Source of the DNA: Phoronis australis
Taxonomy: Eukaryota > Animalia > Phoronida
Assembly (NCBI GenBank): GCA_002633005.1
Contig: NMRA01000146.1
Coordinates: 307,981 to 371,980, forward strand
Reading direction: 5' to 3'
DNA length: 64,000 bases
In this document: piece by piece, positions 3,401-38,185 of the stretch
Position numbering within the stretch: the first letter of the stretch is position 1
Layout: each line of letters starts with the position of its first letter
Position numbers and translations under genes: made by a program
The notes under the pieces: model-generated
What the model was told of the DNA's origin: nothing
Database searches by the model: none
What the model saw: the letters and a program-made list of their open reading frames with translations, nothing else

Positions 3401-3741
3401 ATTCCAAACTATGGTTTTATTTTTTAATTAATAATGTGATGGAATGTCCTCTTGTTTTCGATTGTAAACAACTCACATCATCACTTGCCTGACCATATGG
3501 GTCATCCTCGTGGAATGTTCTCTAGTATTCTATTGCAAACAAATCGCCTGGAAGCCTGGTCCATGGTTTACGTCAATCAAGTGATATCTGCTACTACAAA
3601 ATAAGACTTATAGACCAAACCTAGTGTCTCCCTACTCCTAACAACATGGACTTTCATTGAAAGCAGAAGCACTGCAGGTTTCTGTGCGTCTCCGCAATAC
3701 ATTGGAAAAGCACTAGACTCATTGTTACGTCGTCTCCATAG

Positions 3742-4001
3742 GGGGCTATTACGTGTACTTGGAAACGACAAACGTAAAGCACAGATCGATGGCGAGACTG
3801 TATTCATGTAACTACACTCACAATGGGTCGACGGAACTGCAGTTCTGGTACCACATGAAGGGTGTATTCTTGGGCAGTCTCAATGTTTACGAAATGGTGG
3901 TTACCAACGCGACGGAAAAGCTGGTGTGGTCAAAGAGCGACGAGCAGGCTGACGACTGGATCGAGGCTCGGATCAACCTAACTACTTCAGGGCCCTTCCA
4001 G
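3742..4001 (+). CDS. MAM-domain membrane protein, internal exon (central MAM domain)
   Basis: ccatag| acceptor and CAG|gtttgt donor. Translates GYYVYLETT...ARLYS...LQFWYHMKGVFLGSLNVY...LVWSKSDEQADDWIEARINL...PFQ, the typical MAM pattern (GxYxYxE, FWYHMxG, LxVY, W..W). Confidence 0.9.
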
Positions 4002-4779
4002 GTTTGTGGAAGCGTCCCATGTTAGTTTAAGCTTGTAACAACTGTTTGACAAGCTAACCGCGCATTATATTTCATTTAGAGAGACCTTATCTTACGTTAC
4101 ACGGCGTTCGGCGTATTTTTACAAGGACCAATTGCTGGGGCCGATCGAATGTTCACGTTCCATTAAGACTTTGATGGATGATGTCTATTGATCAGTTAAA
4201 AGTGATTTTGTTTTAAATACAGCATGCGTTATACACTTCTTTTAAATAGACATTTTCCAACTTGCTTCAGTGGTCACACCTGTTTTCACTGTAGCGACTG
4301 TCGGGATACCTTCGAGTGACGAACTAATATCGTGATCCATAGCGTTGTTATTTTGTTGCATAATTAAAAGCGATTGCTTTCATATAATTCGTGCCTCAGA
4401 AACACATCCCAGATTCACATTCAGTGTAAGGTAAGGTTTCTAAGACATGTGAAAGTTTTAGTCTATCGTTATGTTGTTCCCTCGGTGCTCTCGCCGTGAC
4501 GTAATGTGCTGTAAAAACGCTAATCAATGTGTGATTTGACGTTCATGCCGCGTTTACTTGTGCAATTATTCTTGTCTTCGTGAATTGCTTAAACATTACT
4601 TCCTTCGTAGCTATAACATAACGAAAATGCTTAAGAAGGAAGGCTTTATTGTGGCCTGGTTATTCTAAGCAATAGATCCTCAGTACACATAAAATTACAC
4701 GATTAGATTGGGTTAAAACTTTAATAGCTTCTGGTTTTTACTAAACAAGTGAAATCACACATGGCGCGTCGTTTTCCAG

Positions 4780-4915: not shown

Positions 4916-5528
4916 GTAAGCTTTTATTCCGCTACATGCTGATATAGCCGCAAGTACGACTGTATGTAAGTATATGTTTGTGAATTTGTTTACCTGCAAT
5001 AAAATTAAGCCGTATCTCGAAAGCACGTTGTTCAACATCGAGGAGTGTTCGCACAGGTCTATGAACTGAAATCCATGCTACTTTCGTTTATTAAAAGCCC
5101 GTGCTTCTTCAAATAATTTAAGAACTCTGGATTTAGAGCCTCTCCCCTGTGAAATTAGCCTCACTTTGTTCCTTACTTAATTGAGAAGTGATTTCTTGTG
5201 TTGGACACTACTTGGCACATAAAAACACCAGTCGTGGCAACCTAATTTTTTGGAATTTCAGCTAGGTAATTACAAATTGTTACTTCTTACACGAACGACA
5301 GACATCACCCCTAATTCGACACAGTAATGTCTTGAGGTCAATATCATAATGACGTGTGGCCAAATGTTTCGGATCAAAGTACGAAACTATTTATTTGACC
5401 GTCACCACTAAGATAGGTTCTCACTTTTGTCGATATCGATCGGTAATTTTAGTCAAACTCATATTGTATAGTTTGACACTTGCTACACGTTACACATGTA
5501 ACTGATAATTGTATCAAACTGTTTTCAG

Positions 5529-5908
5529 AATCAACAAACAGAAGAACAGAGAGGACAACAAAACCATTCCATCATAAGACCACTTCAGCCACAAACATTG
5601 AACATACATCACAGAGCACAATCTCCTCGAGAACTATTTATAGGTTCATCACCAAGACTGGGTTGTCGTCAGAAGAAATCGTGTTTGTTTCCATTGGGAT
5701 TGCTGTGTCCTTTTGTTTCTGGTCGGCAATATTTGTGCTGGTTATTTGGTACGTCAGGACTCACCCACGTTCTAAGTGGGAGATGATGAATATTAGTCAC
5801 CAGCTCCCCCTGACTGACTCCAACGGAGGCTTCGCCCCGGAAAAGGCCGAAGAAACATTTACAGATACATATTCAAACATCTCCTTTTCAGTTGAAACAG
5901 CTGCATAG
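5529..5908 (+). CDS. MAM-domain membrane protein, terminal exon (Thr/Ser stalk, TM helix, short tail)
   Basis: ttttcag| acceptor with phase 1 join. T/S-rich stalk, hydrophobic IVFVSIGIAVSFCFWSAIFVLVIWYV, tail ending DTYSNISFSVETAA-stop. Confidence 0.8.
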
Positions 5909-9438: not shown

Positions 9439-9687
9439 TCAACCGCTGGCAATTAAAGNTTCAGCGTACAAATCCCTTTCGTAATCGGACGGCAGAAAGT
9501 GCTTGCCACACACACGGTAATTCTCCACTGCTTTGTACGTTGCGTGGACGGGTAACGCTGCGTTCTTCACACGAACGAGCCAAGTACGGCGAAGTGTGTC
9601 ATCCATCGGAAAGCGATGCAAAGGCACTCCCAAAGCGCGCGTGAGCCGATAATTACTACATCCCGGTACGCAGCAACAGTGTGGCAT
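9439..9687 (-). pseudogene. THAP zinc-finger domain (transposon-derived, truncated)
   Basis: MPHCCCVPGCSN...LHRFP...RRTWL...RVCGKHFLPSDY matches the C2CH THAP signature (CxVxGC, FP, W, CxxHF). Confidence 0.85.
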
Positions 9688-9952
9688 GTTGACTGACTAG
9701 TAAATGAAAGCGAACGACGACGGAACTTAACACAACCGAGGTAGAACAATGACTGACTCGGCAGCTCTCACAGTCAGACTATGTGAAAAGAAATTGGCGG
9801 GAAGCGCTTGCCTCCTAAAACGTCACTTCTGGAAAAGCGGACGAATAATTAATATAATTACGAAAAGCTGTAATTAAGTGAAAAATACGTCTAGGATAAC
9901 CAACCAACCTTATTTTAGCTCAAAATGACATGGAAAAAGGTTGCCTTCGCCT
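9439..9952 (-). mobile_element. Kolobok-like DNA transposon end carrying a THAP-domain ORF
   Basis: Minus strand starts TTAA|AGGCGAAGGCAACC, and a THAP ORF begins about 265 bp inside. TTAA target, RR terminus and THAP domain are Kolobok traits. Other end not found. Confidence 0.6.
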
Positions 9953-11315: not shown

Positions 11316-11472
11316 TGTAATAGATTATGTATTGCGACCGCTAGATGGCGTGTTGTTTGAGGTACGCTCTCTATTGTCTGAAAAATGGATATCAAGTGAC
11401 TTCCTCAAAAATGGCTGTTGTTTGTCATTGAAGAACTGACTCGAATCGAATCTGGGATCATCAACGTTAACA
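11316..11472 (+). repeat. 5' LTR
   Basis: TGTAATAGATT...CGTTAACA; about 8 mismatches to 15548-15704. Confidence 0.95.
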
Positions 11473-11492
11473 GTTGGCGACGAGGTCGAAAA

Positions 11493-14400
11493 ATGTCGTC
11501 TTTAATTGGATCAATATCTCCATTAACAGAATCAACTAACTTTGATTCACACATCGAACGATTGGAGGCGTATTTCGAGGCAAATGATTTGCCCTCCGGA
11601 AAACATGTTAGTTGTTATTTAACCGTTGTCGGTGAAACTGCTTATGATCTGTTGAAATCATTGCTGTCTCCGACAGCCCCTAAGGACAAAAGTTTCAACA
11701 ATGCGTCGCTGCGCTGAAAGAACATTACTCCCCAAAACCGGTGGTGATTATGGAACGTTTCCGATTCATGAAAAAGATACAAAAGCCCACAGAGTCAATC
11801 CGTGATTATATTGCGGCTTTGAAAACCCTAAGTTTTCACTGTGATTTTAAAACTACGCTTGAGGAGCGTCTGAGAGACCATTTGGTTATGGGCCTTTACT
11901 CAGATTAATTGCAACAACGTCTCTTACGAGAGAAAGATTTGAGGTTTCAAGATGCCGTTGACGTTGTGGTTGCTATGGAAGCGGCGATGAAGGACTCTAA
12001 AGAAATTCGCCCAGCACCGCAAGATGTTCACAAAGTAGCTGGAGCTGCAGGTGGGGTGAAACCCAAGCCCAACCCTGCACCTCGTAGAACTCGTAGAAAT
12101 AGATCCACACCGTCAAACTTCAATGGATCATGGTGGCGTTGCAAAGGCAAGCACAAGGCTCGTGAGTGCCGGTTCATAAACGCCACATGTTACAAGTGTA
12201 GTAAGATAGGGCACATTAAAAGGCGTGTCATTCAACCCACCATGTATCTGTGTGTGCAGGCTCTCAGGAAACGTCTCAAGCGGACACTCAGGAGGTGGAT
12301 GCCTGTGGTGTGTATCACATAAATGAAACTATCGGTGATGAGCCAGACAGGTTGACATTGACTCTTAATGGAATACCTGTTACCATGGAGGTTGACAATG
12401 GTTCCGGTCGTTCACTTATGTCTCGTGAAACATTTTTCGAGACATGGAGTGATGATTGGCGTCCAGAACTCGTCAGAAAAGAGTTGCCATTGCGTACGTA
12501 CACTAAGGAACCGATACCGGTTGCCGGTTCGTGCATTTTTTCTGTGAAATACCGAGGTTGTGTACAGGATCTGAAGTTGTGGATTGTGGAGAGTGCAGGT
12601 CCAACGTTGTTGGGTCGCAGTTGGATGCGCGAGTTCAACATGCAAGGAACATCAGATGTGTCTAAAAATGTGTTGGATGAATTTCCAACTTTGTTCGAAC
12701 CGGGTTTAGGTACCTTGCGCGATGTGAAGGCCAAAATTCATGTGGACCCTGACGTCACACCACGGTTCTTCAAAGCTCGCTCTGTGCCTCATGCAATGCA
12801 TCTTAGAATAGAAGAGGAGTTGGATCGTTTGCGGGGGCTTGACATCATTAAAGCAGTTGAGTTCAGTAATTGGGCTGGGCCCATTGTGCCAGTTATCAAG
12901 GCTGATGGTCAGTCATTGCGTATCTGTGGTGACTACAAATTAACTGTGAACAAAGTCTCTCAGTTACACCGCTATCCGATTCCGCGTATGGATGATTTGT
13001 TTGCGTCATTAGCCGGTGGACAGAAGTTCACGAAGTTGGACATGTCGAACGCTTACAACCAACTTGAGTTGGACGAGCAGTCCAAAATGTATATCACTAT
13101 TAGCACACACCGCGGATTGTTTGTCTACAAGAGGTGTCCGTTTGGTCTTAAGTCAATACCCGGTCTGTTTCAACGCCATATGGAAACATTGTTGAAAGGT
13201 ATCCCACACGTAGTTGTGTACCTTGATGACGTGCTTGTTACTGGCGTTGATTATAAGGAACACTTAAACAATCTGCGTGAAGTACTGCCTCGTTTCTCAG
13301 AATCCGGTCTTAAGCTCCGTAAACACAAGTGTTCACTGATGCAGTCAGAAGTTGTGTACAATGTATTTGGGTCGTCGCGTCACCTCTGAAGGACTTCACC
13401 CTATTCAGGATCGTGTTAAAGCTATCTTGAATGCTCCCGTACCGTCAAATGTCTCTGAACTCAAAGCTTTTTTGGGTATGCTAAACCATTATGGATCTTT
13501 TCTGTGTGATTTGAGTACATCACTTGAACCTCTTCATCAGTTGTTGAGGCGTAATCAAACTTGGTTTTGGTCGGCAGAGTGTCAGAGGGCATTTGATAGT
13601 GCGAAGAAACTGTTGTGTTCATCTCCATTGTTAGTTCATTATGACCCTAATAAACCAATACTACTGTCGTGTGATGCGACTTCGTATGGTTGAGGTTGCA
13701 CTTTGTCTCACATAAACCCTGATGGAACTGAATCGCCTATTGCACATGCATCGAGATCTTTGAACAGGCCGAACGAAACTATGCTATGGTTGACAAGGAG
13801 GGTCTAGCTTGTGTTTTCGCTGTTAAGAAAATGCACCAGTATGTTTGGGGTTGTAAATTCACACTAGAAACAGATCACAAACCCATTTTAACCCTTTTAC
13901 GTGAGACAAAATCTATACGCCCTATGGCGTCAGCCAGAATGCAGCGTTGGGCCTTGACGTTGTCCGGTTATGATTACTGTATTCGTTATCGTAAGGGATC
14001 AACCAATTGTGTTGTAGATGCTCTCAGTAGATTGTCATTGCCGTTTCAGGAGGTAAACACTCCTACCCCTGGTGATGTGGTTTTGTTGATGCAGACATTG
14101 CAAAAGAGTGAATCTCCTGTATCTGCATCGCAATTGAGACTTTGGACAAGTCGTGACCCTGTGTTATCTACTGTTAAGTCATGTATTATGTCAAGTAGTT
14201 GGGATAAGTTACCATCTGTCTTACTTGATGATTTGACACCATGTGTAAGCAGGAAGCTTGGACTAAGTGTACAAGTAAACTTAGTTTTGTGGGGATCACG
14301 TGTGATTATTCCCCCGCAAGGTCGTGTTAAGATTTTAGATGAGTTACATGATGCACATCCTGGTATTTGTGCTATGAAATCTTTGAGTAGAAACTATGTT

Positions 14401-15498
14401 TGGTGGCCTGGTTTAGATTAAGCATTGAGTGATGTTGTTAAGAAATATAAAACTTGTCAAATGTTGAGTAAGAAACCTGCTGAGGCACCATTGAGCATGT
14501 GGCAGTTCCCTACCGCATCTTGGGAAACGCTTCATATTGATTTTGTTGGACCATTTCTCGGTACATATTTTCACATAGCTATTGATGCCTACTCTAAATG
14601 GATTGAGTCATGTAACATGAGCAGCATTACTGCTGAGTTAACCATTGAGAAATTACGTCATATTTTTGCAACCCATGGTTTGCCTGATACCATTGTTTCA
14701 GATAATGGTAGTGCATTTATTAGTCAGACATTCCAAGAGTTTCTTGCAAAAAACGGTATTAAGCATGTCACTAGTGTGCCATTTAAGCCTGCATTGAACG
14801 GCGCTGCAGAAAGGGCAGTGCAGATTACCAAGAACGGTTTGAAGCGTGTCACTGAAGTTTCGCTCGAAACACGTTTGTCACGGGTTTTACTGAGCTACAG
14901 GACACGACCACATTCTGTGACAGGAGTTACACCCGCAGAGTTGCTTATGAATCGTACATTAACGACTGCTTTAAGCAGAGTGGAACCTGATTTCACTAGC
15001 CGAGTCAAAACTAAACAAGCTGTTCAATGTGAAAATCACAAATCTGGTAAATTACATGTACGTGTATTTGAGATTTGTGATAAGGTTCTGTTTCAAAACT
15101 TTGGTGGTGGCCCTAATAAGTTGCCAGGTATCATTATGGAAAGTTTAGGGTCTCGCATGTATTTGGTGAAATCTGACCATGACAAATATTATAGACATCA
15201 TGTTGACCAGATGCAGCTAGATTGTACATCTCCCAGTTTGCATGATAGAAGTGTAGAAGTAACTGATCATTCGTCTTCTTGTAATGATATTGTTAACATT
15301 GAACCTGTGCCTAATGTTAACGAGCCTGATTCAGCGACAAGCCCTGATGATATGTTGAGTTCACCCATTGTTCCCGAATCTAACAGGGATGTTGTGGAAT
15401 CACCCTCAGCATCTGTGCCTGTTCCGGAAGCTCCGCCAGTACCGGCTTCTAGACGTTCGCTCAGAAATTTTAAGCCCCCGGACAGGTTGAACTTGTAA
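11493..15498 (+). pseudogene. Disrupted gag-pol polyprotein
   Basis: Gag (ERLEAYFEAN; zinc knuckles incl. CYKCSKIGH), protease (MEVDNGS), RT (RICGDYK, YLDD), RNase H (CDATSYG, TDHKPI), integrase (HDAHPG, LHIDFVGP, SDNG, AERAV). Broken by frameshifts and in-frame stops at ~13691 and ~14419. Confidence 0.93.
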
Positions 15499-15547
15499 AA
15501 CTGTTTGTTGTTCCTGTAGTTAAGTTTTCCAAGCTTGAGGGGAAGGG

Positions 15548-15704
15548 TGTAATAAATTATGTATTGCGACCGCTAGATGGCGTGTTGTCTGAGGTACGCT
15601 CCCTATTTTTTAAAAAATGGATATCAAGTGACTTCCTCAAAACTGGCTGTTGTTTGTCTTTGAAGAACTGACTCGAATCGAATCTGGGATCATCAACGTT
15701 AACA
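15548..15704 (+). repeat. 3' LTR
   Basis: TGTAATAAATT...CGTTAACA directly after the polypurine tract. Confidence 0.95.
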
Positions 15705-16940
15705 GCTCATTCACTCGTTCGTACATTGTCATCACACCAATCGTTGAATTTAGGCTCGCGGCTCAGTACGCACGTTTCCGTCTACTGTGGTCTTAACTAC
15801 TAAAACATGGACTTCCTCGGAGATTGTAGTTAAAAGCGCACATTTGTCATTTAATTTTGTTTTTTCAGGACAGTCCACCTTAGTAAAGAGTGTGGAGGGG
15901 TCGTCAGGCACAGCCAAACTGTGTGCTAAAGTTGTGTCATGCAAATTAATTTCGATACATCAGCTTTAGGGGAGGCTGGTAACCCGTTAGATATCACTTG
16001 GAAAACACGTGAATTTCTGTGGCAGCCTCCGTAAGGGAAGGTTTGCCAGAGTTTTCTACGTCAACGGCTGTCAAATTCCCCAAAACATCACCAAACTCCA
16101 AGCTCATGCTCTTGTGTTTTCAAACAAGAATGTGTTAGTTGACGTTTAGTCTACCCCGAGTAGGATAAAGATTTCTATCTTTTGGCTTCAAGTCGTATAC
16201 CGATTTTCTTAGATTTGTAGCCGCAGCCCTAGTGAGTGGAACAGGCTCAGTTATGGTTACACAGATTTTTAGACAAAAGATAAGAGTTTCTTTAGTTGAC
16301 GAACATCCCTCTCCCCCTTCCGTGTTGGGTTAAGGTGCGTTCACACAGGCAAACTCCACCAAACGTTTGCTCCTCACAATGTCTAAAGTTTTGATAAGTT
16401 TGGAAACCAGTTCATGCTAGCAGAAAATAAGGAGGATGCCATTTTGGTTATAATTCACCAAAATTCACCAGTGTTCAAATTAATGTGCATGACCAAACTT
16501 CAGCACGCTAATAGATCGTGTCTTCAACCCATCCAGACAGGAAACTTTTGCTTGCAGACTTGACCAAAATCAGGGTTGGATATTTTGCAAAGTTTACACA
16601 AAATGCCGACCTGGACCTGTCTTTCAAATCAATCGTGCGCATATGATGATGTATGATTTTGGAAATGTTGTGTTATAGAAAGGATAGAGGCCTTTTGAAA
16701 CTTCTTCAGTAAGTCCACACTCCGGCCGTACCTACCACTTACCTCAGTTTTGTTCATTTCGCTAGTAGTATGAATTTTCAACGTCGCGAGCTTACACACG
16801 AAACTCTAGTGTGACCTCGCTATTCACTGCCGTGACTTTCCTCAAGATTGCAAGAAACTAGCTTCACGGAACACGACACTCATATGCGCACCCTGTTAGA
16901 TGTTGGAACTTTGACGCAATTATTTGAATATACATGTACA

Positions 16941-18205
16941 TCACTTTTTGTCCACTGGTGTGGGCCTGTCTACAGACATGTGACTGTAGGGCAAAACCCT
17001 AGCTGTTCCGAGCTTATGACTATTGACGGAACTAGACCACTGCTTCCTTGATATCGACGACGACTTTCGGCACCCAAAAATGATAAGCTGTTGCTCCAAA
17101 TTTGCTGGAGAGACGGGACCACTCACTTTACTCAGTTTGTATGTTGCCGTGGCGTGAGCCCAAGCATAGAAGTAGTAGACGCTATTACTTGACGTTTTCA
17201 CGTCCTTGTGGTTGTAATGACCCAGTATTTCTAGAGCCCGTGCTGCTATGGTCAGATGTAGATTTTCAACGTTAAAATTTCTTAACCTCGATTGGAAATC
17301 GTGGCCTTCATAACACTGCTGGAGACAACTGACCCAGTCTTTTGTTTTCCCTTCGTTCACTCCAAGAATCAGCAATGCTGCAACTAAAGTGTCGTGTATT
17401 GATCGAGTTGGAAATCTGTATCGTTGTAGCTCAGCAACACGCTGCCTGCTTATTGTCATCAACATTTTCGTGTAGCGATTCATAGTTCTAATGTGATTCA
17501 GCCTGTCGGTGGCCGCTTTGAAATCGTCTAACACATCAAATAATCCCTGCCGGGCAACCACGGTGAGCATTCGTTTCATTCCCGCGTGATCCTTGGTTTT
17601 CTCCATGCCTTGAATTGTAGACTTAAGCGTAAGCGCCATTATCAATTGCTGAGATTGTCGGATCAGCTCCACGTCTTCATCCAGCTGTTCCCGTTTCATA
17701 TGAGCTGCTGTTTTATTGTAGTTTGTCAGAGCCGCTTGGATTTTCTCGCGGTCTTTAGTTCCTTGACTTAACGTCAACGTTATTTTGTTGAGTTCGTGCT
17801 TCAGGCAATTGATATCGCCTAGTTTCTTCGGAGGTTCAACCTGCTGCCTGACCTTTTCGCTTTTCTTATCGGCAACATCGGGGCACGTGGACAGGAAACG
17901 TCCAAGCATGGTTCCACTGTCTATCACATGGAGTGCATTGGGAATTAGAGCGTGCTGTGTTATGTGCCTTGCAATCTTACCACGGGGTTTCTTCTTTTCC
18001 TCTAGCATCTGTAGCAACTTGGCTACAACGTTGTCGAACTCTACTTCTCCTTCAATTATTTGTCGTTTCGTCTCTGCCAAGTAAGCATTGCGCATGTGCC
18101 ACACGCAAATGAAGACGAATGTCACGCAGCAGATAACCAGGACCAATGTAGTCAATGTCTTTGACTCCGTAATGTCGACGACATGAGTCCAAAGGTACTC
18201 GTGCA
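16941..18205 (-). CDS. Terminal exon: TM helix, helical region and dynein stalk MTBD-like domain
   Basis: Open frame of ~420 codons. Acceptor ttttgattgattgtag| in phase 1 matches the TSP1 exon donor. TM is LTTLVLVICCVTFVFICVW; MTBD-like stretch ISRQRVAELQRY.FP...LLILG...KDW...DFQSRLRNFN...VKTSS...FYAWA. Confidence 0.85.
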
Positions 18206-19156
18206 CTACAATCAATCAAAATCCTGTACAGGCTCTTGATATGCGAAACTTTTAAAAGTATTTCGAATAGCTTATTGCTTAAGTTTTCGTGGCGACATTT
18301 TAGGTCTACTAGTTTCGACGCCCCTACTGAAAAATGTTCTTCAAATATCCACCAAAACCCGCAATTTTATGTGTCATTCAGATGAAAATTTCGTGAAATG
18401 TTTTCAAAATGTCACATTTTCGACATTTCATAAAATCACGTAGGGATAGTAACTGAGTACTTGAGTGGTATACAACTTAGGTAGGTCACGTGACCGTATC
18501 CTCGATAAGTGGGCGTGTGCACGAGCATGAATGAACTTTCATGCCCGAAAACTTAATTATTATTTATTTTAGTCACACCTTCCGACTGACGAAGTTCATC
18601 GTGTACATGTATTCTAATTTGGTGAATGTAAAATAAAGAATATCTTTACAAATGTCTAAATGAAACTTCAGCAGCGCAGTTTCCGTCAAGTTTGTCATTC
18701 TGCCAATCTGGGCTGAGTACCATACACGCAAGAATCTTGCGAGTAATGGTAGGGTGATCACGTTCTTCCCTTGTATGGCAAACTCTTGCGAAGTCTTATT
18801 TGATATTACGTTTTTGTGACGTTATTGCGTATACGGAAGGCACGCCTGGACACTATTGTCTTTCGTCGTTCAGTCGTTTTGACTATATTTTTACCCTTTG
18901 TGTAACGAAAGTCTGTGACAAGCTCATTTCATTTGAGAGTCACCAGTTTTGCAACCCCACAAACCACTTATCATCGCAACGGAAAAAAGTGAGATTGTAC
19001 TGTGAACATCTACATGTACCTACATGTACATGTACACGTCAAATGTCGTATTTTGAAGAATTTGCAGTTATGACAATTTGTGGTCAAACAACGTCTAGTT
19101 ACATGAATCCAGTTACATGTAGTTGGCCTTGGTCGTTATTTTGAATTTCTACTCAC

Positions 19157-19345
19157 TTTCGTGATATGGGTCGCATGGGAATTCGTCTTTGCAGGCTGCA
19201 AAATGTCTGTGCGAATCCGGGCAGTCGTCGCCCCCATTCTCCGACGGTGACGGGTTGGTGCAGGTTCGTTCCCTGCGTCGAATTCCCTTACCACAAGTTG
19301 TACTGCAGCCGCCCCATTCAAGCCAATCTGACCATACACCATGAA
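19157..19345 (-). CDS. Thrombospondin type-1 (TSP1) repeat exon
   Basis: ttcttgaag| ... A|gtgagt; 189 nt, phase 1-1. Translates [57 protein letters not shown] (WxxWxxW, CSxTCG, RxRxC). The ORF track shows the wrong frame here. Confidence 0.95.
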
Positions 19346-21099
19346 CTTCAAGAAATGAGAGTGAACGTGTTACCGCCTTTCAATTCATCTGCAGATAAAG
19401 TTTTTGCGTGCACGATGTGTCATGTTTGAAGACTGAGGTTTGCAAAGCTTCTTGAACCTGACTCCTGCTAAACAACACTAGAGATTTTTACCGTCTCAAA
19501 CCCGTTCTCACAGCGTCCCATACTCATTTTGAAAGTCATTTCTGGGCCTGTTGACCAATATGTGTAATCGAAATCGAACACGAAATTACTTTTTGTATTT
19601 TTCGATCCGTTATTCTTTTGTGCGATCTCCACGTTAGTGTTATTATTATGTATAATCTATTACATTATGATTTTTGCCGGTGAGTCTCTCATTCGCGTGT
19701 GACGACACCAGCATTCAAGTTTTAACCTGAGTTCGACACTGAACTCGAAATCTCCAGTCTTCAGCTCGTATTTAGTGCCGCCGTTCTTCTAATGCAAACT
19801 TGGAATATAAATTAATGAGCGATAATCAAAATGTATTCAAGCTCGGGATAGTAGGCACTGATAGTCTGGGACCAAATGCTGTTTTTTACTTAACCGGGAT
19901 TTGTCGGATAAAGTTTTTTTTCCTTGCTGTTTCATGTAGCCTAGGCATAGTTAACCCTTGATCATTTTTAAAATATGCAAATTAAGGTCGCCATTATGCA
20001 AAATTCTATTTTTGCTTATAATTTGCTTACCAAACACTGCAGGCAGAAAATTTTGACGTTTTTACCCATGTTTCCATGAATTTAATACTACAAGTTTTTG
20101 GTGAATATATTGTCAATTTGCATAATTTGGGCAAATTAAGGCGGCCATCATTATGCAAAATTCTATTTTTGCTTATAATTTCCTTACCAAGCACTGACGG
20201 CAGGTTATTTTGAAGTTTTACCCATGTTTCTATGGTCAACGAGTTGAGTAATGGAATTTTTTGGGTGGATACAACGTCAATTTGCATAAATCATTTTACT
20301 TGTTCTAATAGCCATGGTACCAATCATCACAGGGGAATTATCATGGAATTTGTACCTATGTTTCTATGGTCAATTAGTTTAATGAGATCATGCATGTTGT
20401 TGTATGATAAATTTGCATAATTAATGCAAATTAAGGTCACCATTATTCAAAATTATATTTTGCTTAAAACGCCTTTACCAAGCAGTTCAGACAGGTTACT
20501 TTAATGTTTTCACCTGCGCTTCCATGGTCAGTGAATTTAATGGACCTCGTTTACTGGTGGATACATTATGAATTTGCATAATAAGTGTATATGCAAATTA
20601 GGGCCGCCATTATTCAAAATTCTACTTTTGCTTATAGCTGAAGTACTAGGCTCCCCAATTAAACTATTTTAACGTCTTTACCCAATGTTCCTGTGAAATC
20701 AGTAGGTAAGTTGTTGCATGATGAATTTTCATAATTTATACAAATAAAGGACACCAGTATTCCAAATACTGTTACTGCTCATAATTTCCTTCCGGGCTTT
20801 ACATATAGATTATTTTCAAATTCATCTCATGTGTTCATGAATTTGCAATAATTTATACTTTACACAAATTACAGCTGTCATATTCAAAATTCTACTTGTG
20901 CTTATAACTGCTGCATCAGACACCTGAGGTTAGTTATAAATATTTGCACCAATGTTTCTGTGGTAGATGAGTTTAATGAAATCTGTTTGCAGGTTGTAGC
21001 ATGATAAATTTGCAGAATCTCCTTCTTGATGTTGAAGTAATGAAATACTTGGTGTAGCGTGTGTTCTGCAGTTTGAGACTTTAACTTTGGGCACATTTG

Positions 21100-22180
21100 C
21101 CATTTGTCGAACAAGATTGAAACACATCTGGGAGAGATGGAGAGCGGTCAACATTAGATCTTGTACTAGAACCTATCACACGGAAGAAAGTAAGCCATGT
21201 TTTGATGCACATGCCCAGGATATTGCACGAATCTGTCAAATGTAGATACCAGCATCGATCTATTAGATACCAAGGTCCATCCCAAAGACGTAGTAGTGAA
21301 CATTAGCATGACAGGATTACTACTCCAACAGTTAATGTAGGCCTACATGAAACAAGCATTGGACAGGTAATGTTATCAGACTTTGAGAAAGGCTAGCAGT
21401 ATGTTAGGAACACAAGTAGGCAATCACTGACGAAGATCCTTGTCCCTCAATACAGTACAAGGACATTGGAGATCGAGACATCCCATGAAGAAGCTAGCTC
21501 CATTATTGTCCAACAAGACGTGAAATGTGCCTATGAACAAATTTTAGGTTGTATCGGATGACAAAATGTATTTGTATTTGTCCTTGTCTGCGTTACTAAG
21601 ACAAGGGACAGCTTCAAATACCACAACCATGAAATCACCTTCAGTGTAGTAAGCGTAGAACAGTCGTAGACATAAAGTTAATACTGGAAACATGTAGCGA
21701 TATTGTGAAGGTCTCCTGCCCATGCGCTTTAGGGTTGTAACGTGGAGTTGGAAAGGGATCCATTGTTAAAATACTGAAGGCTGGACATGACTTGTCTGGC
21801 ATCGGCACTTTTAATGCACATTTTCTGATGTCATGAAACAGGCAAATAAATGTATGCGTGCCTGCTATGGAATGAAGAGAACCAAGAAAATGCCAGGAAC
21901 CAGACTACTGGTACGGGGAAGAGAAATGGCAAGAAATATATGTCCGCCTCCAAACTGTCACCGACAACAGAGGCATTCACAGAGAATATAAACGCAAACA
22001 GAGCCCATTACCAGTCAGCCACGTGGTGGAATGTCTCTAGCATTAGATCCAGAGGACTATGGATGGAAGAAATACGCCATGAACAAATCTCTCTCCACAT
22101 TCTTAATTCCGCATGGTGTTCAATTCGCTCCTGTTGCATACTGTTGATGATTTGGTGTGACTGCAAAGGTCAGATTTCAT
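21100..22180 (+). pseudogene. Academ-type transposase relic (XPG/PIN-like region and Cys-rich end)
   Basis: Frameshifted motifs SHEEASSIIVQQ, SDD.NVF, HAL*GC, SPTTEAF...RAHYQSATW, DPEDYGW and CDCK. Confidence 0.65.
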
Positions 22181-23161
22181 AAATTGCAGTGTCAATTTTC
22201 TACCCCGCACATTTTACGCACGTTATACTGTAGTGTGCTCACGTTCCGAGTGTCAACTTATCATTTGAAACGTCTTGTGACTGGTCTCTATTAGATAGAT
22301 TATGTCCTGGGTTTATGCAGTTAAAAAATTTGGTCATCTACTACATACACTGTATAACCTGGGTATCAGACAAAACTAAAATGTATAATGCTGTGAAATG
22401 AATTACATATCATTTTTTATGTAATGACAGATTACCTAAAATTCATCTGTAAAAATACCAAAATAATCTACATGTAGTGCCCCCAGTTAGAGAGTTACGG
22501 GCTGAAATAGAATTTTTATTAATGATCGCATTCACTTTCATAAATTATGCTAATTTATCATGCAACTTGCAAAGTGATTTCATTAACCTAATTGACCATG
22601 GGAACATATGTTCAAATATCATGAGAGTTTAGCAGCGGTACGTGGTACCACAGATATGAGCACACTTTGAATTTTGAATAATGGCGCCCTTAATTTGCAT
22701 TAGTTATGCAAATTTGCATTAATTACTAAACTAATTGACCAAAAGAATATAGGTGCAAAATTCATGATAGTTCATCTGTGGTGCCTGGTACTGTAGCTAT
22801 AAGCACAAGACGGATTTTGAATAAAGGCGGCTTTAATTTGCATAAATTATGCAAATTGGCAATGTATTCACCAAAAAAACTTCCACTAATATATTCGTTG
22901 ACCATGGAAACATCGGTGAAAGCATCAAAATAACCTGCCTGCAGTACTTGGTAAGTAAATTATAAGCAAAAGTTTACTTTTGCATAATGATGACCTTAAT
23001 TTACATAAATTATGCAAATTGACAATGTAGTCACCAAAAAACTTGCACTATTAAATTCAAGGACCATGGACATATGAATAAAAACGTCAACATTATCTGG
23101 CTGCAGTGCTTGGTAAGGAAATTCTAAGCAAAAATAGAATTTTGCATAATGGCGACCTTAA

Positions 23162-26100
23162 GTATTATTCCACGGATCCACCGGCCACTGTACCGCCAAC
23201 AAGCGGCAAGGTGGGGAGTCAGCCATTCAGATCCATGTTTAGTCTAATAAATCGAATTGGGTATGCGATAAATTGGGTGAAGTATGACACCACAAAGTTT
23301 GGTGGCTTAGGAGATACAAGTTAAGTCTTCTGGGGGAGAATGGGGCAAATTTTCTACTCCAGTTTCTGCTTCAAACAGAATCTTTTCTGAACATTTTTGA
23401 TATCACATGATAGGTTCTTGACCAATGTAAGTAAAAACGACACCGAAGCTGAAATATCGGTTACCATGGTAACGCTGGAGCTGTTTCCGTGGAGGTACAC
23501 TTAATGCTTGTTAAAAATCAGCAGTAACCTGTACCCTTATAGCGAAGCAGCCCCCACGAGAAACTAAAACTAATAACACGGACATGTAAAAGATCCGTGC
23601 CCTTGAAATTAATACAAAAAAAAACTTTATCAGCCCTTCAGGCAGGCTTGGTAATAGGTGTCTGAATTTGACTATTTTCAGACAGCGTATGTGTATTTTT
23701 CGTGTTAAACCAGTCGTTAGTTGTGTGTCGTTTTTACGCATTAAAATGCCGTGGTATGCATGCAATACAACAGTTAAAATAATTGGTTTGCTTAAATGTT
23801 CTTAATTAATTTTAAGGACACAAGCATTTTCCACTAAAATATGAACTTATACTACATTTGTTCATCCAACTCATTGAATACCAAACTAACGCATACAATG
23901 CGTTAGTTGAATGATGGCTGATATAAAGTGCGGGTTTGCGAATTTATCTATTTATTTGGCACTGTCAGTCGCATCAAATATATTTTTACAAATTGTTGAG
24001 AGAAACAACTTTGGAAACTCTGGGTAAAAGCACAAGGAATTGAGCGAGACATTTGAGAACCTTAAAAGTGAGAGGAGCTGATGTGGAGGTGGAACGTGTC
24101 ATCCTGAGAAGTAGTCTCTCGCAGTGTCTGCCTCGGAGGCAGGTGTGCAGCAGGAGCTACATAATCTACCGTAGTAGATTCACTTGCCCGAATCATCGTT
24201 TCAACCCTCGACATATATTGGCGTCGGCAAAGACACTTGGTACATCCACTGCACACTAGAAGAGAATTCTGATAGAGGTCTGAAAAATGACCAAAGACGT
24301 CAAGGTTCAACATCCTGCTTCGTGTAAGCTCAGGTAGCAATTACCAAACTCCAGGGTCTGACCCTGATGAATATTTTAGGAGCCCATCATTCGTGCAAAA
24401 ATACTTTTATTGACACACCGTGATTGCTTATAACTTTGACCTTATTGCTTAATCATATCTTATTTCAAATGTGTTGATGTATATGCAGTGTATATACATT
24501 GGCATAGGAAATAGGTAGTGATATTAACTTTTCATAATAACCACCAAATGTGTTACAATACTTCTGCCCATGACTTACTTTTAGAGACTAGGGAGTATGT
24601 TATGTCTGCCAATGGATTTCTGCGACTTAATGTGAAATTAATTAAACATGCTTAAGCCGTCAAAAATATTTGGTATTTCTCAAAAAAAATCATTGGTCGA
24701 TTGTTTTATGTTTCAATGTTATGAAGAAAAAATATAATGCGCAACTCATTCATTTCACAATCAACGCTGATGCGTAGGTAGTGTGGATAATTCATATCGG
24801 TCTCAATATTTTCTACATGTATTGAGCCATACTTCTGTTTTATACCTTTGTCGTACTGTCATGTACATAGAAATTCATTTTGTAAATTTTTATAATCAAA
24901 TCCGAATGCCTTAATTGTGAAGCCTTCACTTTAGTTTGGCATTCATATTCTCTGAGCCGAAATGGCCACATTAAATTTTAATGTTTAATTTTTTCATTGA
25001 TACAATTTTAGGAATCAGGAAAGGCTTATGCTGAAGAAGTGGCTTCAGCTGAAGTTGGAGACCTGCCGATTATTAGTAAAGGTTGGGTATGGAAAAGTTC
25101 AAAACCAGCAAAAAGGTACCCTTCTGAATAACTAAGTGAGGGGGCTAGAGAGTGGCCGAAATGTCTACTCCCAGAAGATGTGTCAACGAGAATTTGTAGC
25201 TTTAGACACGAGTTGGGGAAAAGTATTTGCCCAAGACTACTGGCTTATAACACAAGAGGTCCAACGCAATTTGCTGAGATAGGTAAATGTGGGGAAACTG
25301 GGACAGTTGAAGGTTGGATATATGACAGAGGAAGTGGAGTATACATTGGAACGAGACAATCTGTGCTCTAAGATTGTCAATGATGTAGCATTATAAAAAT
25401 TCAAAGGCAGGAAACAGTACAGTGACTGGACCTGTAAATACTCTGGCTGATCTGCTAAACCCAGTGATGGCATTATTATGTCAGCACAGTTGAGTAGGGA
25501 AGTAGGCTTGTGTGTTTTTACAAGCATTGTTTGCACCGGAACTGCTGTGTGAACAGCACAAATCTAAAATTACCTGGATTGAAGTTTTGTACATGCACCG
25601 ATCATGACCCCGGGCCACTGGATTAAGTTGGTACATCCACATGGTAATGGTACATGATTGTTCTTTTTGTTTAGCCACCGGATTTTTTGGTTTGACAGGA
25701 TTTCTCAGTGTGGCCATCACATTTAGATGATTCCTGACCACTGTACTGTTTCGTTTCCTTGAAACTGCGTAAATGATCTGAATTTATGTTTTCGCATTTT
25801 ATTTACCATTATAAATTTTTGTTTGTAAAAGGGTATTTATTGCTGAAATTTGAGCCCCTGTTGCAGTTAGGAAGGTTTGTTCACTTATCTTTCTGCCTGG
25901 GTTGTAAACCCACATTCTGTCCAGGAGGTAAAGTTTTGGTTTAGACTATTTACCTCTATAAACTTTGCTCAATTTGTTCCTTATCCAGATGGGAAGTGAT
26001 TTCTAGAACTGCAGGGAATTGACAGTTTGCTATTCCTCGAGACCATGGTGTGTGTACAAAATCAAACACTATTAGACTGATCTCTAGCAGTTGCATATTG

Positions 26101-28664
26101 CCAGATCTTTCAAAATTCTGAAATTGCTCAAAAGTGACCTGGAAATAATTCCTATTTCATGATGGTAAAATGTCTAAACTAAAAGTTGTTTTATGTGATT
26201 TTAGGCGAGTTTATGTCCACTTCAAATGAGTTTTTGTTGCAGTACTGAAAAACATTGGCACATTAGCTCTGGTGGCTCCTTGATTTTTGGCAAATTGACC
26301 ATTTTATGGTTCCCATGGGTAATTTTGGTACTGGTCTATTATGTATGTACAACTGTAATCGTACGGCAATTGTAATGCGAACCATGTTGCAAATGTATTT
26401 TTCCATGATCATTTTATTGTAAAAATGCTGTCTAATTGGAACCGATAAGTCATTTTTTCATTTTGTGGTGGTTATTTTTGATAACAACATTGATGTGGTA
26501 CATACAGCTACCTCAAGTTGTGAAAAAGAAATTTCCAGTGTTGTCAGCGACATTGCAAAATCACTTTTTTGCAGTGAGACTACATCACCTTAAATGTAAT
26601 TCCCTGACTTTATGGGTTTTGTGTGGTTGACTCTGTCCTGTAACAATTGGAGTGTTGGAAACATCTAGAAGACAATTTTTTATTAGAGTCATAACATTTG
26701 CACTTTTGACTGTACAATTATCTTTGTATTCTATTATGAAAACATAATTTGTAGTATACAAGTCTCTGGTTGGTGTTTTACATTTTTAACAAGGGATATT
26801 TTCAACTTAGATGAGTTGTCTGGTACAGTAGGTAGACAACTTTCAAATAAGATAAGGAATAAAATTGTCAAACATTGTTTTATTTTTTAGATGTGTGATC
26901 TTCCAATAAGTGATTACTTTTAAAAAACCAGTGCGTGCAGAATTTGATTTTTACTCTTCATTTTAAGGAGAATAAATCCATAAACCTACATTGTCTAGAA
27001 ATTTTACTGAAACTAAGGTTGGGGATTGGAATCTTAATGCAACGGAGTCTGAACCCGTACTATGAGCAATACAACACAATACATGGATAGAAAAATTTGG
27101 TGTTCGGGTTACACGCATAGGATTCGCGTGCGCGGTAATAGTTACTGAGGTGCGTGGTCATTGTTTGTGGATACTTTGGGATTCCTCGTCTGTGGTCAAC
27201 CACGGGAAACCTGGTGGCATAGAGTACAATAGATTAGCATCTACATTGTTCCCGTTGTTATAATAAAGATAATGACAAGCATTTATCGACAACGGTCCGA
27301 GGTACGCAAGGTGCTACATCCATGCGACCAGTGTTGTTATATCCAACAATGACACAACAAAGGAAAACAATGATAGGACCGACGGGCGATATACATGCAA
27401 CGAGTTGCCACGGGCAGTGGAGTCTTGTCATTCGCATGCGCGCACCCAGCCTTCAATATTGGGGGCTTGAATTCCTGAAGTTGTGGACCTATTGGTAACA
27501 AAAAACCGGCGGACTAAGAAAAAGATGACACCAATGTGAATTGCGCGTTTATGCTTGTTTAGTGTACTTTTGTCTCATTTTCTCAGACTTCTTGTTTCTC
27601 AGAGGCGGACCTTTTTGCCCATTTCGCCAAACGGGGGGCTCGCCCCCCCCCCCCTTGGGTGCGCGCATGGTCATTCGAATGTTTTTTAGAGAAATGCAAA
27701 CCCGGTATTCCGTCAGGAAAATTTCTGCGGTCTTTTGTTTTAATCGTGGGAAAAACCGTGGTCATGCCACCAAACTTATCATTCATTTGGTATTACAATG
27801 CATTGTGTGAACATTTGATCAACAGAAAATCTGACTTGAGTATGTTTGAAGAAATACCCATGAGAAAATTGCAAAGCATAAGAACTGTAAATCAAAATAA
27901 CCTACATTTGTCGAGTTCATGTGTAATCCTGTTCACTGTAGATGATGTAATCGGCTTTTTGTCAAAATGGAGCCATTTATGGTATCTAAGAGTACTATAG
28001 CCTTAGGTGGTAAGTAGAAAAACATTCAAAACACTCAGGAGGAACAAATTCGTTGCAAAATATCGATAAAACTTGAAGGACAATCTGATTTTCCGTGCTC
28101 ACGTATCGATCTCAGATATTTGAAAATTTCTCATTTTAGTACATTTGAGGTGCCAAAATGTATAACTAATCAACTGGCTGACAAAGTTTTTATTTTATGC
28201 AATGAAAGTAACATGTTTTGACAACACTTTGGCAAAGTTTCATCCTCATAGCAGTGGGGCAGATTTGGCACAGCAGGGTACTGAACATAACCTCAAAATG
28301 GCATAACGGGGGGCAGTGTAGTGAAAATACTAAATGAGGGTGGTAAGTCGGATTAATCTTTTTTCAAGACATCTGTGTAACAATCTTTAGGCACCACTAA
28401 ACAATGCCAAGTGAATAATAGTTCAATAGCTTTCATTCAAGAAAAAATATAAACAGTTAAACCTGGGCAGTTTTTGTACTGTGAAAACATGGCTGCGAAG
28501 CCGTAAAATGTGTATGAGCCTATAACTTTGGTAAAACGTAATATTTTGAGGAATAGTTTACCAATGTTTTTAGATCCTATAGGACTACCAATATGCCGAA
28601 TTTGGTAAACATTGGTTGACCCCCACCTTGCCGCTGAATGGCTGGTGCTCTCGTGGACTGGTAC
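23162..28664 (+). mobile_element. Nested DNA transposon flanked by TTAA (superfamily uncertain; Sola3- or Kolobok-like)
   Basis: TTAA at 23158-61 and 28665-68. Imperfect TIRs GTA...TCCACG...GCGGCAAGGTGGGG.GTCA.CCA. Removing it restores the host's inverted repeat. Coding relics at ~24050-24340 and ~25020-25300. Confidence 0.7.
27435..27669. mobile_element. hAT-like MITE
   Basis: TIR CATGCGCGCACCCA/TGGGTGCGCGCATG with a perfect 8-bp TSD GTCATTCG (27427-34 and 27670-77). Confidence 0.85.
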
Positions 28665-29380
28665 TTAATTTGCATATTTAAAAAAATGCTCAAGGGCTGC
28701 GAACGGTCAACCCCCTAAATCATGGTTACTTAACCATAAGCTAAATGAAACAGCAAAGAAAAACTTTATCCGACAAAACCATGTTGAACCCCCCGGCTCC
28801 CGGGCTATAACGCGGATTCAACTCAAAAGTACAACGGAAATTGTGAAAAAATTGGAAATCACTTTTGAGTACGAAGATTAGATTCTAGACCCTGAGGTAG
28901 GGAAAACAGACAGTCCAAATGACCAACATGGTCCAGTGGACTTCAAGAGATCGATTTCTTTCAAGCAGTAACGAACTGCAACTAGCAAGCCAGTAGAGTA
29001 TTTATCTATCTTATGTGAATATAACGTTAAGTTGTCAGAGAAAGACTAATCGGAGACATGTCAAGATTTCCAGTTTCACATTTCATCATTTTCTCTCTGT
29101 GGGAGATTGGCATGTTTATACGTCAGGTTACCGTGTCATATACCACCAATTTCGACTTAGCATCTACAATTTAAGGCACGCTGAAGTTCTAGAGTATGCT
29201 GTGGCAGTAATTTAGTAAGCGACTGATAAGGCGATTGTAACCGAATAATAAATTTGGTTACCTTCACAATTTTACACATTTACAGTATAGGCAAAGACTT
29301 AAATGCCATAATTAAAATTATATGAAAGCCCTTTGATAAACTATGGATGATGGTGTAGAACATTTACTGTAACTTATTAC

Positions 29381-29704
29381 CCACAACTTTTAGAGTCGCC
29401 GAAACCGAAGCCGTGAAGGAAGGCTCTCGACTGTTCGTCGCAGAACACGTGAAAACTTCGTCAGCATGGTTCATGTACCTCGTGAATGACAACACCTTTT
29501 CTATATATGTCCCTCCGACTCGTCGTGCGATGACCGCTGGTGCTGTTGAAATAGCAAAATTGGAAGAAAAATTTGCCCGTCCGCCTGGGTTTATTTTTCC
29601 CTGGCAGCGAATGGTTGCCTTTGTACCGTTGTTAACGATCACCTTGCCGTTAACAACACGTGACACGGGGTCGTCGCTTTGAATGGACATGTCGTATGGT
29701 CCAG
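29381..29704 (-). CDS. Ig-like exon (class F, membrane-proximal)
   Basis: tttctctgcag| GPYDMSI...ATIRCQG...FTCSATN...LKVV G|gtaat; 324 nt, phase 1-1. Confidence 0.85.
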
Positions 29705-30019
29705 CTGCAGAGAAAAAAAGAGTATTGGTGGCTTGCTGCGGTACAAGCGCAAGTCACACAATCCATGCTTGCAAAGTTTCTTGGAAATAATTGAATAGAG
29801 AATAGAAAGTATAAAGATTTGTATGGATACACGGGAACATGGTGTCAATACTAGCAAAACACATTGCATCCCCTCCCGGGTGAGAATTTGACACGTTTGA
29901 CAAGCTCTAAAAACGTGGAGTATTTGAAGGCCCTAAAAGCCTGTCGAACGTGTAAAATATAGCGTGTCAAACGTGTCAAGAACGTGTCAAAAACGTGTAA
30001 TTTTCGTTCCAATACTTCA

Positions 30020-32310: not shown

Positions 32311-34087
32311 AAAATTCTCACCCGGGCTGTCACAGAACTGCAAGGGTCGGTTGCACAAACGTAATGCGTTATAAACAATGTAACAACAACGACGTCGAAT
32401 CATGACGCGTTGAGTTGTCATTGTTGAACATAGTATTTCAGTGACGTCATACAACGATCAAAACTTGCCATCTGATAACTGAGTAAGTTCAAAAGGTTAC
32501 GCAATCCAACCTTGGAGATTAACGATAAAATAGACATTCAAATCAGTCGAATAGAAATCCTTGAGTGTGCATTATCGAAAAACTTTCAGCGATAGAAGAA
32601 AACGGGATCCGTGAGATATTTTACTATGCGAAGTATTAATGTAAGCTGCAGGAAAAGTAACAGCAGTTCTTGTTATTTAAAACCTAAGAGAACAAAGATC
32701 TCAAGGGAAGGCCATGGAGTATGACGAACTCAATAACTATCCTTACATGGTTCGAATTACCCCGTGAGTGGCGCAATATACTCCAATCACTGAACTCAAC
32801 CAAAATGCAAACGACGTGTCTTGAAATTTAGTACGACATCCATAAACCAACAGGTGAAGGATTTTCGTCGTTGAACGTTATTAAAACAGCTTGTTATGTC
32901 CTTTTAATCTTTTAACATGTACAAAAATTTATGTTCGTGATCGTTAAAAACGTTTTTTCTACAGTAAAGTATAGAATGCTGCTGACTAAACTAATAAGTG
33001 ACATCAAGTAAAAAATTAAAGGCCACCTAACGATGTTCGTTGGTCAGAAACGTCAGGAGCGATGGGCTTTCCTCACTGAAGGAGTAGTGAAGAAAAAATT
33101 CTGACGACTCACAACGAAGCAGAACAATACATGAGGTATCAATAGATGAACTAGATGACTGTCAAGCCATGTACATGTACATGTATAGACTACATGACTG
33201 AACTTGAAATGGTAAGAACACCAGTGACACCTCTGGGAAGAAAAAAAGTTTTGCCTCGGGTCAGAAAATACTTTTTTACAGACATAATGCGGGTTTTATT
33301 CCAGCACTCGCAAAATTGACAACATTCGAGAATGAAAACTTGAGGAAAAGATCTAACATGGTTCACAGGACGTCCGAATTTGCCCACAGGCTTGAGGACG
33401 GGTGGTTCAATTTATCAACATGCACGTTTTTCTGAAATGATCCCTGCATCTGTGGCCTATACTAATCACAGTGCTTTACTTAGGTCGAGGAGGAAACACG
33501 TGCACGGATTTCGTCTCACTCGAGAACGTCCTAACGGTGTTGTTTTCGAAGAAGGCTAAGAGGCGCGGGACAATAAGGCTATGTTGCGTAGGAAAGTACA
33601 ATATGCCAGCGTGTCAGAAAGTGGTACATGTTAATGCTGTAGCGACACTGTGGGATTGTGAAGCAGTGAGTAATTACGCGACCGTGTTTCCAGCACGACC
33701 GCAGAGTCAATTCCCCATGCTGAGACGGTGCCACAAAAGTCACGGATTGTCATATGGGCTACGTATACTCGTCTTCTCAAACATTTTACTCAAGTACGGA
33801 ATTGCACCACGTGCGTTCTAAGTAAATTTGGGACTTAAACAACAATTAATCAACTAGATTATATTCTATATGTAACTCTCGTTCACAGCATTTCAGACTA
33901 CGTTTCGAAGTCAACCAGTTGAAGACAGGTGGTGTCACGATTGGCTACACGTGAAACATACCTGACCTATCATACCAGTAGGCTATGTCGGTAATGTGGC
34001 ATGAATGTTATCGATGACATCGGTAGACAGCATCATGATAACTCACTGGTGCCTCTTTGCATTTAGTAAGCAGTGTCCAATATTTAC

Positions 34088-38036: not shown

Positions 38037-38185
38037 CTGAAAAATTATAAATTCCTTCCAAAATACTCCGTTTTTCCGACTCTGTTTTCTTTTACGACTT
38101 AATAAGCTTAACATTCTTTCATAGTTCAATCATGATTTGGTTTTGCTAAGTCTGGTGTCATAACGTGTTGCTAGACTGGACTCAC

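Follow-up and report, generated by a model that had tools for sequence, protein, structure and literature searches.

UNC5, a type I netrin receptor, has an ectodomain of two immunoglobulin (Ig) and two TSP1 domains, a transmembrane (TM) helix, and a tail composed of ZU5, UPA, and death domains, and links of the receptor to tubulin have been reported. Hemicentin also combines Ig and TSP1 domains but is secreted. To our knowledge, neither protein contains a dynein-derived domain, and the microtubule-binding domain (MTBD) of dynein has been studied almost only within the motor. Here, we analyzed a 64,000-nucleotide stretch of the genome of Phoronis australis (positions 307,981 to 371,980 of contig NMRA01000146.1, assembly GCA_002633005.1; hereafter the window), the minus strand of which encodes an Ig-TSP1 receptor with a motor-less MTBD-like domain in its predicted cytoplasmic tail. 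The predicted product contains at least twelve Ig domains, one TSP1 domain, one TM helix, and a 386-residue tail. It differs from UNC5 in having twelve Ig domains and one TSP1 domain instead of two of each, and a Pfam search of the receptor exons for a ZU5 or death domain gave no match. The individual parts, namely the Ig, TSP1, and dynein MTBD folds, are known. The architecture that joins them is real and apparently undescribed, since a literature search, incomplete for most subscription papers, found no description of a receptor with an MTBD tail or of the domain family to which the tail belongs.

The 3′ end of the coding sequence is formed by a TSP1 exon (19157–19345, minus strand, 189 nucleotides, phase 1 at both ends) and an intronless terminal exon (16941–18205, minus strand), which encodes the TM helix and the entire tail. 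The TSP1 exon lies within an open frame at 19379–19149 and matches Pfam TSP_1 with an E-value of 7.7e-13, whereas the terminal exon is part of a 424-residue open reading frame (ORF) at 18215–16941. The intron between them, 19156–18206, has GT..AG boundaries and is in phase 1. About 18–19% of each of three stranded RNA runs and one contig set (data sets X1 to X4) were mapped to the region 16400–29900, and a second mapping covered 33100–53000. The splice 19157>18205 was observed in 15 reads of X1 and 8 reads of X2, and in none of X3 or X4; these 23 reads bear out the original prediction, made from the DNA sequence, that the TSP1 exon is spliced in frame to the terminal exon. The same prediction had proposed one TM helix, and the terminal ORF contains a single hydrophobic segment (18158–18099, minus strand, Kyte-Doolittle score 2.72). 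The preceding splice, 29381>19345, was present in 15 and 31 reads of X1 and X2, respectively. First mates of the read pairs mapped to the plus strand, as expected for RNA transcribed from the minus strand. The read depth of the terminal exon was 30–49 in X1 and X2 and zero in X3. X3 covers repeats but not the receptor exons, so either expression of the gene depends on tissue or state or the X3 individual lacks the gene. A minor internal donor at 29479 was joined to 19345 in 6 + 1 reads, which is 7 of the 53 reads at this acceptor. The resulting frameshift leads to a stop codon at 19320, 164 nucleotides before the last joint, and the isoform would be a target of decay or a secreted Ig-only form.

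Nine Ig exons, from 52757 down to 29381, are connected by read joints to one another and, in frame, to the TSP1 and terminal exons. The short reads provide pairwise joints and do not span a full-length transcript. The exon chain and its reading frame are established, and joining all fourteen exons by their coordinates results in a single open frame of 1,809 residues. This length is a minimum, since the 5′ end of the gene is located outside the window. The ectodomain comprises 1,404 residues with 34 N-glycosylation sequons, and the protein is predicted to have a type I topology with a cytoplasmic tail.

The tail contains a domain at 17124–17453 (minus strand) whose homology to the dynein MTBD is well supported by sequence profiles and predicted structure. 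The original prediction had quoted a dynein-like motif, which is present and starts at 17453, and had suggested a likeness to the dynein MTBD, which the profile searches and fold matches corroborate. The direct comparison that it had proposed, of the tail against the Pfam dynein-stalk family MT, gave no match. The query does not reach the gathering score of PF12777 (24 bits), a single-sequence search of the Protein Data Bank (PDB) with phmmer returned no dynein, and word-based searches with the terminal ORF among proteins of 210–671 and 672–2000 residues found no homologue, which is weak evidence. The homology becomes detectable only with a family profile and in structural comparison. An unindexed phmmer search of 1.84 billion representative sequences identified 94 proteins with E-values of 0.001 or lower, eight of them at 1e-10 or lower. 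An alignment of the query with the 53 relatives shorter than about 600 residues was used as a profile against the PDB, and the first 54 matches were all dynein heavy chains or MTBDs, the best of them the yeast MTBD with an E-value of 5.9e-13. One 4,583-residue entry among these matches carries the label of a radial spoke protein, but its length and position identify it as a dynein. When members with an MT match at E-values of 0.001 or lower were omitted, the remaining 33-row alignment, nine rows of which have an MT match at 0.05 or lower, still recovered dynein at 3.9e-12. The query is only 14–26% identical to the members of the alignment and retains all seven residues conserved in the family; the choice of these columns is partly biased, because the relatives had been found with the query, and yeast dynein has six of the seven residues as well. 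The order and spacing of these six, E, P, G, W, S, and W, are the same in the yeast protein. A profile built without the query assigned the tail a score of 91.5 bits, compared with at most 3.0 bits for 300 shuffled sequences and zero for the reversed sequence.

The AlphaFold2 model of the domain calculated with this alignment has a pLDDT of 90.9 and a pTM of 0.82. A model calculated from the single sequence had a pLDDT of 42 and was discarded. In the Foldseek comparison that the original prediction had called for, dynein stalks ranked first, with a best E-value of 7.8e-4. VIA-align comparison with 48,161 chains identified 5AYH (Z 16.1, root-mean-square deviation (rmsd) 5.9 Å, 163 residues aligned), 3ERR (Z 16.0), 8I3J (Z 13.8), and 6L4P_B (Z 13.0, rmsd 2.6 Å, 124 residues aligned) as the most similar structures, whereas unrelated helical folds had Z-scores of about 7. 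The rmsd of the model is 5–6 Å from full dynein stalks and 2.6–3.1 Å from isolated MTBDs. Comparison with two affinity states of dynein was a near tie (6KJO, Z 13.4; 6KJN, Z 12.4). The ESM Atlas provided leads to clusters in which 25–34% of members carry Pfam MT, with scores of 0.94–0.96 that have low recognition value, and the membrane-proximal 132 residues of the tail provided no leads there. Together, the profile, fold, and shuffling results support the homology well.

The domain shares the six-helix stalk-tip fold of the dynein MTBD (the core of PF12777; 3ERR, 5AYH, 6KJN/6KJO, and 6RZB, Z 12–16.6), but its surroundings differ from those in dynein. Dynein heavy chains contain a ring of six AAA+ modules and a linker, whereas the terminal ORF has no AAA match above the Pfam cut-off. 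The MTBD of dynein is carried by a long antiparallel stalk of CC1 and CC2, whereas in the receptor tail the modelled domain is preceded by short helices and the reading frame stops shortly downstream. The TM helix (18099–18158, minus strand) is positioned about 200 residues before the domain and the protein ends 60 residues past it, which is not a dynein-like arrangement. Three short predicted helices precede the domain (17457–17672, minus strand; helices 17–41, 45–58, and 65–88 of the AlphaFold2 model), and the last of them enters the domain at the position where the CC1 stalk helix would enter in dynein. This segment aligns to a helical repeat found in 83 of the 94 relatives but is too diverged to be recognized by the repeat profile (less than 8 bits). 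The C-terminal segment following the domain (16944–17123, minus strand) comprises about 60 residues, is rich in serine and basic residues, and has a net charge of +6 and one YxxM motif. A scan of the tail for immunoreceptor tyrosine-based inhibitory motifs found none, and two matches to YxxM are too short to be informative.

The 94 relatives range from 98 to 2,303 residues, and none is a dynein by length or Pfam content. Among the 20 relatives that were looked up, 14 are named; they come from molluscs, annelids, a flatworm, amphioxus, and a tunicate, in agreement with the expectation of the original prediction that stand-alone MTBD-like domains exist in invertebrates. In databases, members of the family carry labels such as "uncharacterized", "trichohyalin-like", or "cytoplasmic dynein 2 heavy chain 1-like". 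Pfam MT matches at E-values of 0.001 or lower are present in nine of the 94, three of them above the gathering cut-off. The closest relative is 38% identical to the query over 127 residues. In the family, the domain is positioned at or near the C-terminus. One third of the relatives (33/94) are KY/hillarin-like proteins with an Ig-like_KY domain and often Transglut_core, and others carry CD20, CLCA/VWA, or CARD domains; small proteins of the myristoylated type also belong to the family. No Pfam Ig-set or TSP1 domain was found among the 94, many of which are fragments. The pearl oyster protein KAK3098481.1, which is KY-like, contains three near-identical MTBD-like domains in tandem. Four dinoflagellate-type myosins retrieved by a profile search of proteins of 1051–3000 residues were rejected as relatives because their match is confined to the helical repeat and does not include the MTBD core. 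A similar helical repeat occurs in many copies in these myosins, three of which have a sub-threshold ADP-ribosyltransferase-like match at the C-terminus.

A likely membrane anchor is present in 33 of the 94 relatives. An N-myristoylation pattern was found in 26 of 89 relatives starting with methionine, compared with 7 of 1,268 internal methionines, a control that is not a proteome background. A hydropathy scan flagged a TM helix in eight relatives, of which one KY fragment (P0061) was dropped, leaving seven. The nearest architectural parallel to the receptor is the amphioxus CLCA-like protein XP_078700756.1, a type I protein with the VWA domain outside and the MTBD-like domain ending its tail; the amphioxus CD20-like protein XP_066272931.1 is a membrane protein with the same tail domain. 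In a quick tree of 95 domains, calculated from 135 columns with two short domains omitted and with many forks unresolved, the TM label changes six times, and at least four of the changes are forced by strong branches (one TM label, P0017, was added by eye, and P0081 was left unlabelled). Membrane-anchored motor-less MTBD-like proteins are therefore recurrent and not unique to this receptor.

The MTBD fold is also present in four non-dynein chains of microtubule, radial-spoke, and axoneme structures, 7JTK_C (Z 11.4), 9YA2_L (Z 10.1), 9FQR_Xl (Z 9.9), and 9E5C_2e (Z 7.8), although Z-scores in the range 7.8–11.4 can be common for helical proteins. Chain 9YA2_L is a motor-less component of a cryo-electron microscopy model of a microtubule (rmsd 3.0 Å, 125 residues aligned) and has 162 modelled residues numbered up to at least 1457. 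The accessible text of PMC12819142 describes Toxoplasma ICMAP2 as a protein of 1,678 residues, 10% of it resolved, which forms a dimer bound between protofilaments 3 and 4. The length and numbering suggest that 9YA2_L is probably ICMAP2, although the order of accessions in that text assigns 9YA2 to a different microtubule than the PDB title does. The main text of PMC12819142 does not use the term MTBD or remark on the fold. Like the receptor tail, 9YA2_L is a motor-less globular MTBD fold, and it is part of a microtubule structure; unlike the receptor, ICMAP2 is a dimer, has no TM span described in the accessible text, and has no detectable sequence match to the tail. The accessible text of PMC11779644 contains no chain table naming 9FQR_Xl, 9E5C_2e, or 7JTK_C. 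Motor-less MTBD folds thus occur on microtubules, possibly with another mode of binding, and also in radial spokes.

The residues of yeast dynein that form salt bridges with the microtubule are K3117, E3122, and R3124 in helix H1, R3152 and R3159 in H3, and R3201 in H6, and the accessible text of PMC7042235 describes the H3 bridges as conserved for high-affinity binding. When the positions were mapped by eye from the profile alignment, the receptor had Arg, Glu, Gln, Val, Tyr, and Thr, respectively. Position K3117 is therefore kept as arginine, and E3122 is kept as glutamate, as in 93 of the 95 family domains. Basic residues are located one position away from R3124 and R3201, and the position of R3124 is basic in 68 of 95 domains. 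The charge of H1 is +3, and the sum over H1, H3, and H6 is +2, compared with a family median of +1. The original prediction had noted that the PP motif is altered to FPT and that binding may be lost. The second proline is indeed missing, but this position varies among the family domains (61 of 95), and the loss is of little weight; the first proline, present in 92 of 95 domains, is retained. Complex prediction of the tail domain with an alpha-/beta-tubulin dimer (metagenome loci) gave a score of 0.49 (runs 0.17, 0.49, and 0.54), compared with 0.00 for the best control. The runs agreed in at least 95% of contacts, and the partner pLDDT was at least 78. Of 78 solved pairs, 51 attained the mark applied, as did 2 of 108 mismatched pairs; at scores of 0.60 or lower, however, it was attained by only 5 of the 78 solved pairs and by all four of the mismatched pairs that passed. 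The prediction provides weak support for binding, and because dynein-tubulin complexes have already been solved, it may reflect memory.

The ectodomain is encoded by twelve Ig-like exons on the minus strand. Nine of them have weak Pfam Ig-set matches (E-values 2e-4 to 0.044), and the remaining three resemble sister exons. The first three exons in the direction of transcription lie outside the read mapping and are assigned to the gene from their phase-1 frames. Exon 1 (63321–63641, type A) has AG/GT boundaries with a phase-1 frame and a C2-set_2 match (E 3e-4), and the 5′ end of the gene, with the signal peptide, would be beyond the window. Exon 2 (58165–58500) is of type B, and exon 3 (54409–54729, type A) is 89% identical to exon 1 and is supported indirectly by four reads joining a type-A exon to 52757. 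Exon starts at 52757, 49577, 48843, 46784, 39978, 38521, 38036, and 34435 are joined by reads. Exon 4 (52422–52757, type C, Ig_3 E 0.044) is joined to exon 5, at 49576, in 3 + 4 reads, exon 5 (49242–49577, type B, Ig_2 E 0.005) to exon 6 in 6 + 9 reads (49242>48843), and exon 6 (48517–48843, type A, C2-set_2 E 2e-4) to exon 7 in 3 + 4 reads (48517>46784). Exon 7 (46461–46784, type A) is without a Pfam match but is 56–70% identical to the other type-A exons; its joint 46461>39978 is present in 5 + 5 reads and in a further 11 + 5 with allelic letters. The joints of exon 8 (39643–39978, type C, C2-set_2 E 3.5e-4) and exon 9 (38186–38521, type B, Ig_2 E 4e-4) are supported by 30 + 9 (39643>38521) and 33 + 26 reads (38186>38036), respectively. 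Exon 10 (37704–38036), also without a Pfam match, is similar to type-B exons (tblastn E of about 1e-7), and its joint 37704>34435 was observed in 11 + 1 reads and in 18 + 14 with allelic letters. Exon 11 (34088–34435, Ig_2 E 2e-4) is connected from 34088 to 29704 of exon 12 by loose read ends that match from either side (34 + 17 reads, two mappings). Exon 12 (29381–29704), which is joined to the TSP1 exon, lacks a Pfam Ig match and is similar to exon 11 (tblastn E 3e-4).

Two segments of 1 kb, 54062–55071 and 62983–63974, are 85% identical and include a type-A Ig exon with its flanks, which shows that the ectodomain was enlarged by recent exon duplication. A near-identical duplicate (49505–50189 and 52339–52615) around the N at 49983 creates a chimeric Ig exon, half type B and half type C; it is probably an assembly flaw, though reads map there too. 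The type-C exon that the repeat pattern might predict between exons 1 and 2 was not found; the intron separating them contains a fragmented reverse transcriptase of the long interspersed nuclear element type (59300–61640, minus strand). About 1.2 kb beyond the stop codon of the receptor is a Ty3/Gypsy-type long terminal repeat (LTR) retrotransposon (11316–15705, plus strand) with 158-nucleotide LTRs that are about 95% identical and with reverse transcriptase and integrase frames that are interrupted by stop codons and frameshifts. A THAP-domain frame (9442–9696, minus strand, E 1e-12, with an N at 9459) is probably derived from a DNA transposon. The convergent neighboring gene (plus strand) contains a MAM exon at 3717–4022 (E 1e-15) and an exon encoding a threonine-rich stalk and TM helix at 5477–5905, and its product is a cell-surface protein.

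The proposal that the tail tethers the membrane to microtubules, a coupling also suggested in the original prediction and to which we give about an even chance, has to be weighed against other explanations of the same structure. In its favor are the exon chain, the homology and predicted fold of the domain, the retained H1 contacts, the frequent membrane anchors of the family, the motor-less chain 9YA2_L in a microtubule model, and the weak complex prediction. The MTBD fold may have been kept under selection and re-used as a protein-interaction or dimerization module for signaling below an adhesion- or immune-type receptor, with tubulin binding gone, and we regard this explanation as a serious, if tentative, possibility. 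Several observations argue for it or against the tether. Retention at the exact contact positions is limited to two of six (R3124>Gln, R3152>Val, R3159>Tyr, and R3201>Thr), whereas the core of the fold, E, P, G, W, S, and W, is intact. Helix H3 is without lysine or arginine, a feature shared by only 2 of the 94 relatives. The position of R3201 is acidic in 39 of 95 family domains, so the family may not bind as dynein does. The query is on one of the longest branches of the tree (1.84, compared with a median of 0.56). The fold is also present in the radial-spoke chain 7JTK_C, and the dynein MTBD itself binds the light chain LC1 (6L4P), which demonstrates that the fold can serve protein-protein contacts. 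The myristoylation cases are not independent, since 19 of the 26 are KY proteins and seven belong to one clade. Moreover, the partner domains of the family, CARD, CLCA/VWA, CD20-like, and transglutaminase-like, resemble those of a promiscuous signaling module, and expression in two of three RNA runs together with tandem-duplicated Ig exons would suit a recognition protein. Loss of tubulin binding is at odds with the near invariance of the surface glutamate that contacts alpha-tubulin, the basic character of H1, and the repeated occurrence of the family at membranes.

The terminal exon could instead be a captured piece of a KY/hillarin-like gene that supplied the TM anchor, with the MTBD-like part a decaying passenger. 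The single intronless exon, the modest identity to the best relative, the absence of a close relative in the word-based searches, and the helical repeat that no longer scores are compatible with such an origin, and the query groups in the tree with P0002, P0081, and KY proteins, with weak support (80). The KY/hillarin-like core, transglutaminase-like and Ig-like_KY, was not found in the twelve Ig exons, the TSP1 exon, or the terminal ORF. A passenger would be difficult to reconcile with the intact 1,265-nucleotide frame, the conservation of all seven family residues at such low identity, and the confidently predicted fold, and we consider this explanation improbable. It is highly improbable that the architecture is an artefact of assembly or splicing, or the likeness to dynein a chance similarity of helical bundles. 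The flaw among the Ig exons and the direct Pfam and PDB searches that did not return dynein would favor an artefact, but independent RNA reads cross every joint from 52757 to 18205, and the profile match to dynein agrees at the level of motifs and far exceeds the scores of shuffled sequences.

Based on these comparisons, a mechanism of membrane-to-microtubule tethering by the receptor can be proposed. The module probably entered the gene as a single intronless exon, captured from the invertebrate family, in which it is found mostly on KY/hillarin-like proteins. The ectodomain would form a long glycosylated Ig rod that binds a ligand or a neighboring cell, and the tail would form a weak, ATP-independent, static tether from the membrane to nearby cortical or ciliary microtubules. 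Since the protein contains neither an AAA+ ring nor a long stalk, ATP would be unable to switch the domain, and the grip would be static. Because the basic residues of H3 are lost, binding by a single copy would be weak, and clustering of the receptor together with the basic C-terminal segment may supply avidity. More tentatively, we speculate that ciliated invertebrates use a class of membrane-microtubule linkers in which the motor-less dynein grip is carried by various anchors, myristoylated, CD20-like, CLCA-like, or the Ig-TSP1 receptor, and that the receptor passes adhesive or mechanical load to microtubules without an adaptor. A motor-less MTBD on a transcribed cell-surface protein offers a direct test of the domain without ATP control. 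If the tether is real, it would give an adhesion receptor a simple way of holding on to microtubules of the cortex or of cilia.

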